Source: Escherichia coli (GTDB taxonomy: Bacteria > Pseudomonadota > Gammaproteobacteria > Enterobacterales > Enterobacteriaceae). From it: DNA of 64,000 nt. The stretch lies in assembly GCF_003334385.1 (NCBI RefSeq), contig NZ_QOWN01000004.1. One strand, given 5' to 3'. Positions 4,342 through 41,051 of the stretch are shown piece by piece. The position numbers were made by a program, and so were the translations under genes. The notes under the pieces were generated by a model, which was not told the origin of the DNA, ran no database searches, and was given only the letters and a program-made list of their open reading frames with translations. Within the stretch, counting starts at the first letter, position 1, and every line of letters begins with the position of its first letter.

Positions 4342-4417
4342 TGGTGCCCGGACTCGGAATCGAACCAAGGACACGGGGATTTTCAATCCCCTGCTCTACC
4401 GACTGAGCTATCCGGGC
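4342..4417 (-). tRNA. pheU: tRNA-Phe (GAA)
   Basis: Reverse complement is GCCCGGATAGCTCAGTCGGTAGAGCAGGGGATTGAAAATCCCCGTGTCCTTGGTTCGATTCCGAGTCCGGGCACCA, 76 nt with encoded CCA. Confidence 0.95.
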
Positions 4418-4523: not shown

Positions 4524-5099
4524 TCAGGTCAATGCACCACCCTGGCGGCAGCGGGCGAAGCGCAGGATATCTTCCGCCAGCCGATGTGCAGTGTCGACAT
4601 CCGCCTGGCTACGATTCACCAGCATTCGGCTTAAACAGCCTTCCAGCACCAGTTCCATCTGCTTTGCTACCATCGCCGGATCGTCAACTTCCAGTGTGGT
4701 TAACAGTTCGTGGGTGAAATCGTAGGCCGCGCTTTTTTGCTGATCGGCCAGTTGATGAATAGGGTGGCCAGGATCGGGATAAAACGTACAGGCAGCGATA
4801 AATAGACAGCCCGGATAGCGGTTGTTTTTAACGCACTCCGATAACGCCTGATAACGTGCCAGCAGCTTTTGTTCGGCGGTTTGCGTTTCGTCCAGCATCA
4901 GCTGACGACGCCAGACATCTATCTGTTGGCTAAGATAACGCAGCGCATCGTAGAGGATTGCCTCTTTGTCTGGCCAGAAGCGGCGTAGCTCGTCCAGTGG
5001 ATAATCCACACGTTCAGCAACCATCTCCAGCGTGGTGTTGGCAATCCCTTGTAATTCTAATAATTTCAGGGCTTCTCCCAGTACATCTTCACGTTGCAC
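4524..5099 (-). CDS. yjdC: TetR-family transcriptional regulator; likely GTG start, the ORF-track ORF extends to 5123
   Basis: ORF-track 199 aa; N-terminal HTH ([31 protein letters not shown]); GTG at complement of 5097..5099 gives the 191-aa length I recall for YjdC. Confidence 0.8.
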
Positions 5100-8564: not shown

Positions 8565-8627
8565 ATTAGCCTTCCTTGTTTTTTAACAAGTTGATATTAG
8601 ATTGTTATTTTTAAGTTACTGCTCACA

Positions 8628-27837: not shown

Positions 27838-30800
27838 TTACAAACTTCCCGCCTGACGACCTTTGCCCGCAGACGTCAGCGTTCTCCCCGTTTGTTTACC
27901 GTTGAGGCTTTCCAGACGCATCTGGAAGGGCGGGAATGGCATATCGATACCGTGGGCATGGAAGCCAGCCAGAATCAGCTGGTGGATCTCATGGCGTAGC
28001 GGCATACGGTGACCCATCTCAGCGGCGTAAATACGCAGCTCGAAAATCTGAATCCCCTGTTGCAGATCCACCAGGAAGACTTCCGGTGCCGGGTTGTCGA
28101 TCACCAGCGAGCAGCGACGCGCTGCGGTGAGCAGGATTTCCGTCACTTCTTCGCTATTGGCATCGGCAGGGGCCGGTATCGTCAACACCACGCGCGTGAC
28201 TGAGTCAGAGAGCGACCAGTTGATAAACTGCTCGGTAATAAACGCCTTGTTCGGCACGATTATCTCTTTACGGTCCCAGTCGCTGATGGTGGTGGCGCGG
28301 GTGTTAATTTTCGTCACGCTACCGGTGAGATCGCGAATTGTCACCGTATCGCCAATGCGAATCGGTTTTTCGAACAGGATAATCAGACCAGAGATAAAGT
28401 TGGCGAAAATTTCCTGCAAACCAAAACCGAGACCAACACCGAGCGCGGCAACCAGCCACTGCAATTTCGACCACTCAATACCAACCATTGAGAAGCCGAC
28501 CAGCCCGCCAATCAGCATCAGCAGATATTTGGTGATGGTGGTGATGGCGTAACCCGTACCCGGCGTTAAATCCAGGTGCTGCAAAATCGCCAGTTCCAGC
28601 AGCGCGGGCAAGTTGCGCACCAGCTGCGTGGTGATGATAAACACCAGAATGGCAATCAGCACCGCACCGAGGGTAATTGGCTCCAGACTTTCTACGCCCT
28701 GTACCGTGGAGGTGACATCCCACAGCGAAATATTTTCGAGGAAGCCGAAAGCGGAATGGATTTCTGACCACAGCACAATGACAGAAAGCAGGGCGATCAA
28801 CATCAAAATTGAGCGCACCAGCCGCAAGGATTGCGCACTGATGGCATCGAGATCGACTTCGCTTTCATCGACTTCAATTGCTCCTTCCGGGCTACTGTGA
28901 TGATGCGCTTCCTCTTCGCCACGCGCACGTTGCGCTAACATCTCTGCCCGGCGATGCTTCGCCCGATCAAACGCCAGCCTGCGGCGCTGGATCAGCATCC
29001 AGCGGCGGATAACGTGATAAACCACCAGTAGCAGGAACCAGATGGCAACCGAGGTTTCAAGCCTCGCTAACAGCGCCTGTGCCGTTGCCAGATAACCCAC
29101 CGCCGACGCCAGAATGGCAACCAACGGCGCGCCAATCATCATGTTCCACAGCATATGGTTGGTAATGTTGTCGCCGCTGCCCTCTTTGTTGAGATACAGC
29201 GGAATCCCGGCCTTTTTCAGGCTGAGGGTGACCACCGCCAGCGCACCGCAAATGAGGATAAAGCAAAGCCGTCCCAGCGAACCGGAGAATTCACGGTCGT
29301 CGAGGTTATCGAACATCATCAGCGCCATAATCAGCGGCACAATAAGCCCGATGCTCATCAGGTAGTAGCGCATCCCACGGGAAACACGTTCGCGCGGCCA
29401 GCCAAAATGAGCGATAAACAAGCCGTTCGGGCGGGCAAAGGTGGCGCAAATCATCACTACCCACAGCAGCGGCACGGTGGCCGTTACACCATCGCCAATC
29501 GCGACCGCCAGCGGATAAGGCCACGCCTCGCGCAAGCCGTAACCCAGCGTCATCCACAGCACCGGTAACGGTGACGCGACGAGAATCGACCAGAAAAGAG
29601 TGCGCAACGTCAGCCAGAAGTGATCCTGAGTCACTTTGCCAACTTTCGCCGCCGAACGTTCAAGAAAACGGGTGAAATAGCGGCGCGAGTAAATACTGCA
29701 ACCGACCAGAATCAACGCGCCAAACAGCGGCAAAATTGTCTCTTTGCTGGTCAGCATCATCACACTGGCTTTGCCCAACTGACTGAAGGTGTCCAGCGAA
29801 ATGAGACGACGCAGATCCTGGGCGATTTCCAGCGGCCAGGCGATGGTCATCGGGCGCACGTCAGAGGTCCAGAACAGATAGCGGTGCGTTGCTTCGTTCA
29901 CCTCTTTCAGCGCATCCTCCAGTTGCCCGTTGGAGACTTTCAGCTTGGTCAGTTCCAATAGTAGCGTGTCGCCACCCTGCAACAATGAGTTCAGCAACTC
30001 ACGCTGAGTGCGCAGTTGTGCTTCCAGAATACGGTTTTGCTCGGCAGTCAGCGGCTGACCGTCGGCCTGATGAATTTGCCGTAGCAGCGGCTGTTTATTA
30101 AGCAGATCCTCATAACGTAACCGTTGCACACGCAACTGCGCCATTTCGGTATCAAGCTGTTGTGGTTTCGGCATTTCCGGCAGCCGTGCCACCTGCGCCC
30201 GCAGCGCTTCGCCGAGCAGATTGGACGATCCCAGCCATTGCGACTGTTCACGCAGCGTATTCAACGCCTGCCGGACCTGTAACGTCTGGCTGGCAGCCTG
30301 ACGCTGTTGCGAGGCAACGAGATCCATCCGCTGCGCCTGTTGATTCAAAGCCGCCGATAGTTCGCGGTTAATTTTGAATTGCGCGACGATATCTTTCGGC
30401 AAATCGGCGCTGTTTTCTGCCAGCAATTCGGTACTTTCCAGCGCCCGCTCCGCCTCAAGCTGACGTTGGCTGTTTAATTGATTACGCAAGGCCTGCAAAT
30501 ACGCATCCAGTTGCTGGCTCTCTTTTTCCGCCAGCTCTGAGCGTAAGCGCGCTAATTCCTGGCGGTTATTGGCAGACAGCTGCGCCAGCTCCAGTTCATC
30601 AACGAGCGCCTTAAGACGTGCAGAGTCAGACTGCAACGCGAAATTTTGTGCCTGATTGAGCGGAGTATTGCCGGTAAGCGTTCCCAGGCGGCGCTCGATC
30701 TCATTTAACTGACGGCGGGCGTCGGTTTGCTGTTGCGGCAGTTGATTCAGCGAATCGGCAATCTCGCGGGCGCGCTCCTGCTCTTGCTGGGCCTGACGGC

Positions 30801-33394: not shown

Positions 33395-33940
33395 ATGAGT
33401 GCCAATGAAAACAACCTGATTTGGATCGATCTTGAGATGACCGGTCTGGATCCCGAGCGCGATCGCATTATTGAGATTGCCACGCTGGTGACCGATGCCA
33501 ACCTGAATATTCTGGCAGAAGGGCCGACCATTGCAGTACACCAGTCTGATGAACAGCTGGCGCTGATGGATGACTGGAACGTGCGCACCCATACCGCCAG
33601 CGGGCTGGTAGAGCGCGTGAAAGCGAGCACGATGGGCGATCGGGAAGCTGAACTGGCAACGCTCGAATTTTTAAAACAGTGGGTGCCTGCGGGAAAATCG
33701 CCGATTTGCGGTAACAGCATCGGTCAGGACCGTCGTTTCCTGTTTAAATACATGCCGGAGCTGGAAGCCTACTTCCACTACCGTTATCTCGATGTCAGCA
33801 CCCTGAAAGAGCTGGCGCGCCGCTGGAAGCCGGAAATTCTGGATGGTTTTACCAAGCAGGGGACGCATCAGGCGATGGATGATATCCGTGAATCGGTGGC
33901 GGAGCTGGCTTACTACCGCGAGCATTTTATCAAGCTGTAA
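33395..33940 (+). CDS. orn: oligoribonuclease
   Basis: ORF-track ORF 33251..33940; start at [29 protein letters not shown] (181 aa); DEDDh exonuclease motifs. Confidence 0.95.
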
Positions 33941-34065
33941 AATTTTTCCTGGTCACGTAAGCGCCGGAATCCACTTGCGGCGGCGTGATTTTGACGCTAA
34001 ATTGAACGTCTTGCTGATAATTTCAGCACTTGAGATAAAAACGCAAAAAAAACTTTTTTGGGGGG

Positions 34066-34093
34066 TTGCAGAGGGAAAGATTTCTCGTATAAT
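34066..34093 (+). promoter_or_regulatory. glyVXY promoter (ttgcag -35, tataat -10, GC-rich discriminator)
   Basis: ttgcag-N16-tataat followed by gcgcctccc, about 55 bp upstream of glyV; typical stringently controlled tRNA promoter architecture. Confidence 0.6.
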
Positions 34094-34150
34094 GCGCCTC
34101 CCGTAACGACGCAGAAATGCGAAAATTACGAAAGCAAAATTAAGTAGTAC

Positions 34151-34226
<76 letters not shown>

Positions 34227-34262
34227 AAATTTGAAAAGTGCTGCAAAGCACAGACCACCCAA

Positions 34263-34338
<76 letters not shown>

Positions 34339-34374
34339 AAATTTGAAAAGTGCTGCAAAGCACAGACCACCCAA

Positions 34375-34450
<76 letters not shown>

Positions 34451-34459
34451 AATTCTTCT

Positions 34460-34720
34460 CTCAATAAAATATCCACAGCGACGCGATGCGTTATTGCTGG
34501 TTTTTGTTGTCTCTGACAAACTCTTGTAAACAGAGTTATCCACAGCCTCAGGCTGTAATCTTAATTTCAAAGAAACTTCGCACGGTGAATAGTATTTTTT
34601 TAACCTATTGATAGATAAGTTAAAAATTAAGATTCCGTTTTGTCGAGTCGATCACTTGACGATTTTATTCGTCTTGAATTGCAATGCGTTTTTATTTTTA
34701 TTCACAAGCTGTGGATGAAT
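34460..34720. other. datA: DnaA-box cluster consistent with the datA DnaA-titration locus
   Basis: TTATCCACA at 34546..34554 (perfect), TTATTCACA at 34698..34706, ATATCCACA at 34469..34477, TCATCCACA (minus) at 34710..34718, with AT-rich stretch between; location between glyY and queG matches what I recall for datA. Confidence 0.55.
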
Positions 34721-35857
34721 CAGGCGTCACGCGGTAACCCTTTTTCAATCACCCGAACCAGACGCTGTTTTTTCGGCAATTGCACTTCGACTATGCACGC
34801 ATTTCGTCTCTCTATTTGCTGCGCAATCGCCCACGCTATGTGCTCATCGAGAAGTGGGAGCTCACCTTTACGACTTTCCAGCGCTGTCAAAATCGTTTCA
34901 TCCCAAGGGGCATTGCCTAATGCTACGGCGATATTACGCAGCCAACGCAGGTGACCAATACGACGAATCGCCGATCCTTCCGTGACTTTTAAAAACTTCT
35001 CTTCGCTCCAGGCGAATAACTCAATGAGTTCCGGTGCGTGTAGCGGCTTACGCGGGCTGAAATCCTCTTCTGTGGTGAGTTGTGAATAGCGATTCCACGG
35101 GCAGATAAGCTGGCAGTCATCGCAACCGTAAATACGGTTTCCCATTAACGGTCGCAACTCTTCCGGGATCGCCCCTTCAAGTTCGATGGTGAGATAAGAG
35201 ATACAGCGGCGAGCATCGACGGTATATGGCTCGACGATGGCACCGGTCGGGCAAATCGTCATACAGGCCACGCATTTGCCGCATCCTTCCTCGACTGGTT
35301 GATCCACGGGCAGCGGAATATCGACCAGCAATTCGCCTAAAAAGAAGAACGAACCGGCCTCGCGATTGAGGATAAGTGAGTGCTTACCTGTCCAGCCGAG
35401 CCCAGCTTTTTCAGCTAACGGGCGCTCGAGAATAGGCGCAGAATCGACAAACGGTCTAAAATTCAGCGAAACACAATGTTGCTGAATCATCTCGCCCAGC
35501 TTTTTGAGTCGGTTGCGCAGAAGTTTGTGATAGTCACGGCCCAGCGCATAACGGCTAACATAGCCGAGTTTGGGGTTTTTCAGCGTGCTGGCAAATGCGG
35601 CGTTAGCAGGAAGGTAATTCATCCGCACGCTGATCACGCGCAGCGTACCGGGCAATAACTCATGAGGGCGAGCGCGCAGCATACCGTGACGTGCCATCCA
35701 GTCCATTTCGCCGTGGTATTGTTTGTCCAGCCATGCTTGCAGTTTGGGCTCGGACTCGCTGAGATCGGTATCGGTAATACCTACCTGCTGAAAGCCCAGT
35801 TCCAGCCCCCACTGTTTAATTTTTTGCGCTAACTGATTGAGATCGAGGGGCTCTGAC

Positions 35858-35859
<2 letters not shown>
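34720..35859 (-). CDS. queG: epoxyqueuosine reductase (4Fe-4S, cobalamin-dependent)
   Basis: ORF-track ORF 34720..35967; start at MSEPLDLNQLAQKIKQWGLELGF (379 aa); ferredoxin-type CxxCxxCxxxCP motifs. Confidence 0.92.
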
Positions 35860-39203: not shown

Positions 39204-41051
39204 ATGCCAATTCAGGTCTTACCGCCACAACTGGCGAACCAGATTGCCGCAGGTGAGGTGGTCGAGCGACCTGCGTCGGTAGTCAAAGAACTAGTGGAAA
39301 ACAGCCTCGATGCAGGTGCGACGCGTATCGATATTGATATCGAACGCGGTGGGGCGAAACTTATCCGCATTCGTGATAACGGCTGCGGTATCAAAAAAGA
39401 TGAGCTGGCGCTGGCGCTGGCTCGTCATGCCACCAGTAAAATCGCCTCTCTGGACGATCTCGAAGCCATTATCAGCCTGGGCTTTCGCGGTGAGGCGCTG
39501 GCGAGTATCAGTTCGGTTTCCCGCCTGACGCTCACTTCACGCACCGCAGAACAGCAGGAAGCCTGGCAGGCCTATGCCGAAGGGCGCGATATGAACGTGA
39601 CGGTAAAACCGGCGGCGCATCCTGTGGGGACGACGCTGGAGGTGCTGGATCTGTTCTACAACACCCCGGCGCGGCGCAAATTCCTGCGCACCGAGAAAAC
39701 CGAATTTAACCACATTGATGAGATCATCCGCCGCATTGCGCTGGCGCGTTTCGACGTCACGATCAACCTGTCGCATAACGGTAAAATTGTGCGTCAGTAC
39801 CGCGCAGTGCCGGAAGGCGGGCAAAAAGAACGGCGCTTAGGCGCGATTTGCGGCACCGCTTTTCTTGAACAAGCGCTGGCGATTGAATGGCAACACGGCG
39901 ATCTCACGCTACGCGGCTGGGTGGCCGATCCAAATCACACCACGCCCGCACTGGCAGAAATTCAGTATTGCTACGTGAACGGTCGCATGATGCGCGATCG
40001 CCTGATCAATCACGCGATCCGCCAGGCCTGCGAAGACAAACTGGGGGCCGATCAGCAACCGGCATTTGTGTTGTATCTGGAGATCGACCCACATCAGGTG
40101 GACGTCAACGTGCACCCCGCCAAACACGAAGTGCGTTTCCATCAGTCGCGTCTGGTGCATGATTTTATCTATCAGGGCGTGCTGAGCGTGCTACAACAGC
40201 AACTGGAAACGCCGCTACCGCTGGACGATGAACCCCAACCTGCACCGCGTTCCATTCCGGAAAACCGCGTGGCGGCGGGGCGCAATCACTTTGCAGAACC
40301 GGCAGCTCGTGAGCCGGTAGCTCCGCGCTACACTCCTGCGCCAGCATCAGGCAGTCGTCCGGCTGCCCCCTGGCCGAATGCGCAGCCAGGCTACCAGAAA
40401 CAGCAAGGTGAAGTGTATCGCCAGCTTTTGCAAACGCCCGCGCCGATGCAAAAATTAAAAGCGCCGGAACCGCAGGAACCTGCACTTGCGGCGAACAGTC
40501 AGAGTTTTGGTCGGGTACTGACTATCGTCCATTCCGACTGTGCGTTGCTGGAGCGCGACGGCAACATTTCACTTTTATCCTTGCCAGTGGCAGAACGTTG
40601 GCTGCGTCAGGCACAATTGACGCCGGGTGAAGCGCCCGTTTGCGCCCAGCCGCTGCTGATTCCGTTGCGGCTAAAAGTTTCTGCCGAAGAAAAATCGGCA
40701 TTAGAAAAAGCGCAGTCTGCCCTGGCGGAATTGGGTATTGATTTCCAGTCAGATGCACAGCATGTGACCATCAGGGCAGTGCCTTTACCCTTACGCCAAC
40801 AAAATTTACAAATCTTGATTCCTGAACTGATAGGCTACCTGGCGAAGCAGTCCGTATTCGAACCTGGCAATATTGCGCAGTGGATTGCACGAAATCTGAT
40901 GAGCGAACATGCGCAGTGGTCAATGGCACAGGCCATAACCCTGCTGGCGGACGTGGAACGGTTATGTCCGCAACTTGTGAAAACGCCGCCGGGTGGTCTG
41001 TTACAATCTGTTGATTTACATCCGGCGATAAAAGCCCTGAAAGATGAGTGA
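39204..41051 (+). CDS. mutL: DNA mismatch repair protein MutL
   Basis: ORF-track ORF 39201..41051; [38 protein letters not shown]... GHKL ATPase motifs. Confidence 0.97.

Follow-up and report, generated by a model that had tools for sequence, protein, structure and literature searches.

In Escherichia coli, four systems govern whether DnaA carries ATP or ADP and thereby time chromosome replication; datA is one of them. Catalytic, IHF-dependent ATP hydrolysis on datA was reportedly described by Kasho and Katayama in 2013. According to reviews, datA maps to 94.7 min (4.39 Mb) and has a minimal region that is intergenic, lies downstream of glyV-X-Y and adjoins queG (PMC5742627, PMC10950094). This minimal datA, 183-187 bp in length, comprises DnaA boxes 7, 2 and 3, a lone IHF site and a stimulatory box 4 (PMC5742627, PMC10380432, PMC10950094), of which the essential boxes have a common orientation, with the IHF site placed between boxes 2 and 3 (PMC5742627). 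The whole locus has been counted as holding two consensus boxes and four one-misfit boxes (PMC5835720).

In the mechanism that the literature has established for this sequence, the high-affinity boxes 2 and 3 are bound by ATP-DnaA, which also occupies the weak box 7 cooperatively beside box 2. After initiation, IHF occupies the lone site between boxes 2 and 3 and bends the DNA sharply, forming a loop that sets the DnaA of boxes 7 and 2 against the DnaA of box 3. Head-to-tail AAA+ contacts involving the arginine finger R285, box VII R281 and sensor 2 R334 then lead to hydrolysis of the bound ATP and to inactive ADP-DnaA (DDAH); because ADP-DnaA leaves datA, the site is catalytic. Hydrolysis needs R285, R281, L290 and sensor 2 R334 (PMC5742627). 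Timing comes from the position of datA near oriC, which leads to its early duplication, and from cell-cycle regulation of its IHF occupancy. Specifically, read-through from PglyV-X-Y over the IHF site lowers pre-initiation IHF binding, and IHF bound at the site blocks PglyV-X-Y transcription in turn; basal read-through is damped by the glyV-X-Y terminator and by DnaA at box 2, and the timing of IHF release still requires a further factor (PMC10950094).

The left half of oriC (R1, an IHF site, R5M and low-affinity boxes) resembles datA in that boxes of the same orientation stand on either side of one IHF site and ATP-DnaA assembles into head-to-tail oligomers (PMC5742627). Its R1 double box, TTCCTGACA-gag-TTATCCACA-g, has ACAGAGTTATCCACAG in common with datA boxes 7 and 2 (PMC11317965). 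Unlike datA, oriC serves to unwind DNA and gives no stimulation of ATP hydrolysis, and the box-to-box distance over the IHF site is much longer at datA. Read in box orientation, the IHF site is downstream of the double box at datA but upstream at oriC, and HU can stand in for IHF at oriC but is no substitute for it at datA (PMC5742627).

DARS1 and DARS2 are, like datA, non-coding box clusters outside oriC that alter the nucleotide state of DnaA, and DARS2 shares with datA a cell-cycle-timed binding of IHF (PMC5742627, PMC10380432). However, the output of DARS1 and DARS2 is the opposite one, in which ADP is released and ATP-DnaA regenerated, and the DARS core boxes I-III have an opposed orientation. 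DARS2 also differs in requiring Fis and in binding IHF before initiation, whereas datA binds it after. Box clusters of Bacillus subtilis and Streptomyces coelicolor, cited as datA analogues, repress untimely initiation (PMC10950094, PMC5742627), but have neither an IHF site nor demonstrated ATP hydrolysis and are not homologous to datA in sequence or position.

The spacer between glyY and queG

The window, by which we mean the whole 64-kb stretch of E. coli DNA that was analysed, has a 269-bp spacer (34451..34719) that separates glyY from the 3′ end of queG and is almost certainly datA, the E. coli chromosomal locus for DnaA inactivation. We base this identity on complete agreement with E. coli K-12 MG1655, synteny, site content, published primers, a ChIP-seq peak and a comparative footprint, and nothing in the sequence speaks against it. 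Indeed, all 321 aligned bases of 34440..34760 match NC_000913.3 (MG1655) from 4392648 (321/321, 100%; MG1655 position = window position + 4,358,208). The order here is orn, glyV-X-Y, spacer, queG, nnr, and the annotated neighbours in MG1655 are, in order, orn, glyV, glyX, glyY, yjeV, queG and nnr. Published datA and the present locus do not differ in sequence, in position, in boxes 1, 7, 2, 3 and 4 or in the IHF site. The parts of the locus are as follows.

34151..34450, plus strand: glyV-glyX-glyY, three tandem tRNA-Gly(GCC) genes (ARAGORN, Rfam tRNA, MG1655 annotation); upstream flank
34469..34477, plus strand: DnaA box 1, ATATCCACA, one mismatch; overlaps the glyV-X-Y terminator
34476..34510, plus strand: glyV-X-Y terminator/attenuator, hairpin 34476..34499 followed by GTTTTTGTTG
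34524..34532, plus strand: DnaA box 7, TTGTAAACA, low affinity, two misfits to TTWTNCACA; essential for DDAH according to the literature
34536..34544, plus strand: DnaA box 2, perfect TTATCCACA; high affinity, essential (literature)
34601..34613, minus strand: IHF-binding site (IBS), TATCAATAGGTTA, a perfect match to the consensus WATCAANNNNTTR; essential (literature)
34684..34737, plus strand: yjeV, annotated 17-codon ORF (MG1655 annotation); shares bases with boxes 3 and 4 and with the final codons of queG
34698..34706, plus strand: DnaA box 3, TTATTCACA, fits TTWTNCACA; high affinity, essential (literature)
34710..34718, minus strand: DnaA box 4, TCATCCACA, one mismatch; points the opposite way to box 3
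34720..35859, minus strand: queG (epoxyqueuosine reductase); convergent downstream flank of the spacer
35081..35089 and 35367..35375, minus strand: two one-misfit boxes inside queG, CTATTCACA and TTATCCTCA, respectively

The original prediction, made from the letters alone, had proposed datA between glyVXY and queG at 94.7 min, a location with which the published coordinates and the identity to MG1655 agree. It described a non-coding region with AT-rich DNA between the boxes that neither the tRNA operon nor queG explains, and this description holds: the spacer has a G+C content of 34.6%, yjeV is the only gene annotated in it, and an Rfam search at a permissive threshold found no RNA family in the spacer region besides the three tRNAs and sub-threshold tRNA-derived matches. 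Two of the predicted boxes, now named box 3 and box 4, were given exactly, including the minus strand of the latter. The perfect box exists, although 10 bp upstream of its predicted position at 34546..34554, which reads CCTCAGGCT, and the box at 34469..34477 was rightly placed but lies on the plus strand rather than the minus strand. A scan for IHF sites added the TATCAATAGGTTA element, which had been omitted from the prediction, as had the weak box 7.

The spacer itself is unmarked in the MG1655 record and in one other E. coli record, and yjeV is labelled ‘hypothetical protein’ in other E. coli records. The ATG of yjeV is missing in Serratia, Yersinia, Photorhabdus and others; because it is not kept beyond close relatives, yjeV is probably not a real conserved gene. 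The spacer is found (at least 80% coverage) in 5426 of 5426 complete E. coli genomes, with at least 95% identity in all but three, in which identity is just 80-90%. It is single-copy in nearly all of these genomes (median one place per genome, 5429 places in total), and two of the 5429 matches sit on records typed as plasmids. The copy number of the tRNA-Gly array varies, and many E. coli genomes carry two copies instead of three, so a 1.1-kb query is covered in one piece in just 3798 of the 5426 genomes.

Names for the individual 9-mers of boxes 3, 4 and 7 were taken from reviews, from published oligonucleotides that mark box 2 and the IHF site, and from order and orientation along the locus. 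We infer from published statements that the TTGTAAACA 9-mer is box 7, and order along the locus points to the name box 4 for TCATCCACA. For box 2 the match to the literature is direct: primers subDnaAbox2_L/R flank and swap out exactly the TTATCCACA at 34536..34544 (PMC10950094 Table 2), which is the sole perfect copy of this 9-mer in the window. Boxes 7 and 2 form a double box with a 3-bp GAG linker, and box 3, in the same orientation as both, starts 162 bp past the start of box 2. Counted from the first base of box 7 to the last base of box 3, the stretch measures 183 bp, the same as the published minimal length, and the minimal region is expected to run from about 34522 to about 34708. Box 1 is dispensable for DDAH and is overlapped by TglyV-X-Y (PMC10950094), and box 4 is stimulatory and helps in vitro (PMC5742627). 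The two boxes inside queG are likely box 5 and an extra box of the original datA of roughly 1 kb; the published count of six boxes agrees with the four spacer boxes plus CTATTCACA and TTATCCTCA. Elsewhere in the window, overlapping one-mismatch boxes on opposite strands, TTATCCACT (minus) and TAATCCACA (plus), occur at 4996..5010, about 600 bp from a tRNA-Phe gene (4342..4417); this pair is absent from the published DnaA ChIP-seq regions.

The IHF site is likewise anchored in published sequences. The sole change between the ChdatAsubIBS and wild-type probes, TATCAA to GTACTT, falls inside 34601..34613 (PMC10950094 Table 2), and the MG1655 datA IHF site is printed as the same 13-mer, TATCAATAGGTTA (PMC4585315 Supplementary Fig. 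S11). From general knowledge of IHF sites, the AT-rich stretch 34614..34635 (plus-strand coordinates), 5′ of the 13-mer, is probably part of the site as well. Three more perfect WATCAANNNNTTR matches occur in the window, at 8584..8596 (minus), 30150..30162 (plus) and 41004..41016 (minus); the total of four is not above chance, given that 21 of 100 shuffles reach it.

The hairpin of the glyV-X-Y terminator has an ordinary folding energy (-9.4 kcal/mol; z = -0.37 against shuffles), so its assignment leans on the literature. Specifically, the delter primers remove about 34468..34493, and the accompanying text states that box 1 and the glyV-X-Y terminator are lost (PMC10950094). Two further hairpins were considered and set aside. 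One at 34542..34556 (plus; ACAGCC-TCA-GGCTGT), flagged as terminator-like, has a fold of -8.2 kcal/mol (z = -2.6) and overlaps the final three bases of box 2; it is absent even from E. albertii, was not counted in datA and is probably incidental. The other, a terminator-like hairpin at 34640..34662, received no support from the alignment fold. A sigma-70 promoter scan of 33900..34900 gave no site at threshold, and the promoters TTGACG and TTGAAT, read by hand, were dropped for want of a conserved -10 element.

Occupancy and alternative explanations

Published occupancy data place DnaA on these bases. The original prediction had proposed comparison with published box positions and with DnaA and IHF binding data, and these comparisons favour it; the box 2 and IHF-site primers described above map onto the spacer. 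A DnaA ChIP-seq study reports 16 bound regions, among which the peak labelled datA, at 4,392,740 (window position 34532), is enriched 213-fold and is one of the highest signals in the genome; the double box listed for datA, cTTGTAAACAgagTTATCCACAg (PMC11317965), is the window sequence at 34523..34545. The same study states NC_000913.2, yet its coordinates for oriC (3,925,806) and datA (4,392,740) fit NC_000913.3. Evidence for IHF is divided by method: ChAP-qPCR and ChIP-qPCR are positive at datA, with a signal that rises after initiation (PMC10950094, PMC13036160), but datA was not substantially detected in a genome-wide GeF-seq map, which its authors blame on transient or dynamic binding (PMC8407004). 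Deletion of datA raises origins per mass by about 1.5-fold and causes no growth defect (PMC4585315 Table 2). DDAH is auxiliary: the deletion is viable, and a strain devoid of all extrinsic DnaA regulators is nearly normal (PMC11331064).

Three other explanations for a box cluster at this place were weighed against the catalytic mechanism. Chance pile-up of box-like 9-mers could be imagined in AT-rich intergenic DNA, wherein TTAT-like words are more frequent, and 108 sites in the window match TTWTNCACA with one mismatch, a number not above that in its shuffles. However, only two matches to TTWTNCACA itself occur in the 64-kb window, both in the spacer, and four boxes with at most one mismatch lie within 260 bp, whereas 300 shuffles of the window that preserved its dinucleotides gave clusters of three at most (reached in 4 of 300). 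Composition-matched shuffles of the spacer contain 0.06 boxes on average, and none of 5000 reaches four. Because these shuffles, the ChIP-seq occupancy (PMC11317965) and the retention of the boxes, but not of the intervening spacers, from Escherichia to Plesiomonas all speak against it, chance is already refuted and we give it no weight.

A passive sink was the original interpretation of datA: following the initiator-titration model, the boxes would bind many DnaA molecules and lower free DnaA, with no catalysis. Part of the datA effect is indeed plain titration, in that deletions beyond boxes 1-4 cut titration and point mutants of box 2 or the IHF site merely lowered it (PMC5835720), and the DnaA signal at datA is strong, as noted above (PMC11317965). 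As the whole explanation a sink is nevertheless very improbable. DnaA-bound ATP undergoes IHF-dependent hydrolysis on datA in vitro in a reaction that needs sensor 2 R334, ATP-DnaA is raised in datA or ihf mutants (PMC5742627), and point mutants of the IHF site, box 2 or box 7 phenocopy the full deletion (PMC5835720). Furthermore, a large share of cellular DnaA cannot fit on six boxes, and titration has no need of the strict spacing and IHF-site conservation described below. Still less probable is local transcription control, in which DnaA and IHF roadblocks would stop read-through from tRNA-Gly and PyjeV and shield the convergent queG, the replication effect being secondary. This idea draws on the convergence of the flanking genes, the overlap of PyjeV with box 7, the interruption of PglyV-X-Y transcription by IHF at its site and attenuation by box 2 and the terminator (PMC10950094). 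The same study, however, treats transcription as an input to IHF binding and not as an output, and deletion of datA alters initiation (PMC4585315). Kitagawa 1998 and Frimodt-Moller 2015 are cited for a datA function that is position-dependent but retained (PMC5742627).

Conservation across Enterobacterales

We assembled a QueG-anchored set of 80 loci, one genome per species, comprising 34 Enterobacterales other than E. coli, 10 Vibrionaceae and 36 others. In 33 of the 34 Enterobacterales loci a perfect TTATCCACA is followed 159-165 bp on (161 bp in 24 of the 33) by TTATNCACA on the same strand. Taxa carrying this pair include Escherichia albertii, Citrobacter, Enterobacter, Pantoea, Serratia, Yersinia, Hafnia, Pectobacterium, Photorhabdus, Edwardsiella and Plesiomonas. 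In every locus whose contig extends far enough to include the tRNA-Gly array, the elements are located between that array and queG; many drafts from other species break off right at it (L002, L006, L009, L011, L014, L015, L022, L023).

Conservation was expressed as mean majority frequency over 26 non-redundant rows of an alignment. Box 2 reaches 100% and is invariant in 34 of 34 aligned Enterobacterales sequences, a figure to be read with the fact that the aligned region was picked by demanding the pair of box 2 and box 3, a filter that Mangrovibacter alone failed. Box 3 follows with 94%, the GAG/GAC linker with 88% and box 7, in which ACAGA is invariant, with 85%. Box 1 and the IHF 13-mer each stand at 75%; the position of box 1 is occupied by a perfect TTATCCACA in most other Enterobacterales, and the 13-mer starts 64-66 bp past the start of box 2 in 34 of 34 aligned rows, 27 of which carry it with no more than one mismatch. 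Box 4, at 53%, is kept only in close relatives of E. coli, and ordinary spacers have values of about 45-55%.

Across Enterobacterales, box 7, box 2, the IHF site and box 3 follow one another in this order with nearly fixed spacing. The ranking of the parts by conservation reproduces that from experiment, which finds an essential role for the IHF site and for boxes 2, 3 and 7, a stimulatory one for box 4 and no need for box 1. From this comparison of sequences we infer that selection holds the experimentally essential parts fixed, in both sequence and spacing, across Enterobacterales.

Every Enterobacterales locus apart from that of Mangrovibacter holds one copy of the 15-mer ACAGASTTATCCACA, which is also present in 9 of the 10 Vibrionaceae loci but absent from all 36 other loci. 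These other loci (Shewanella, Pseudoalteromonas, Aeromonas, Alteromonas and so on) showed no comparable box cluster downstream of queG; each has at most one or two isolated one-mismatch boxes, and the tRNA-Gly neighbour is missing in all of them bar one (Rheinheimera, L078).

Unnamed arm motifs and a possible Vibrionaceae counterpart

Three further conserved motifs lie in the arm that links the IHF site to box 3; other spacers score about 48-55% by the same measure.

34650..34659: GATCACTTGA, which holds a Dam GATC site; mean majority frequency 77%
34674..34684: TTGAATnnCAA, here TTGAATTGCAA; mean majority frequency 74%
34690..34697: T-tract TTTTATTT, abutting box 3; mean majority frequency 88%

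For these three motifs we found no conserved hairpin, consensus promoter or Rfam family, and no name in the accessible datA literature. The conserved block and T-run before box 3 were considered as an intrinsic terminator and rejected: RNAalifold gave no consensus structure for 31 sequences, the mean per-sequence MFE z-score is -0.07 and the E. coli fold is a mere -1.7 kcal/mol. A larger fold, 34636..34700, is likewise unremarkable (z = -1.24). One possibility is that the motifs are bound or sensed by the factor needed to time IHF release (PMC10950094); another is that ATP-DnaA makes low-affinity contacts there.

An element with the same order of parts as E. coli datA is present in the Vibrionaceae loci (L039, L041, L045, L049, L051, L052, L057, L059, L062, L075), where it lies in the region between a tRNA-Gly/Met array and the 3′ end of queG. 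It has a double box, ACAGAC-TTATCCACA, and, 10 bp beyond box 2, an extra perfect box in inverted orientation. Further on, 262-281 bp after box 2, come a T-tract and, directly behind it, the distal box TTTTCCACA; in E. coli, too, a T-tract directly precedes the distal box. In Vibrio species an IHF-like site is found 120-123 bp after box 2, each arm around it is about 56-57 bp longer than in E. coli, and three GATC sites are conserved within Vibrio. Such equal lengthening of both arms would keep the geometry of the loop. On this comparative evidence, datA appears to be common to Vibrionaceae and older than described; a search of the searchable literature found no description of a Vibrio datA.

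The datA locus is already known in detail, and its identification here adds nothing to biology. Residual novelty is confined to the unnamed arm motifs and the Vibrionaceae counterpart, and the joint claim, that unnamed conserved motifs occupy the arm and that datA is an older element common to Vibrionaceae, is put forward as a doubtful one. The case of datA indicates that a functional non-coding element with no annotation in the record can be recognised from raw sequence alone, and the side results, namely the footprint, the unnamed motifs and the Vibrionaceae element, are of use for the study of IHF timing at datA.
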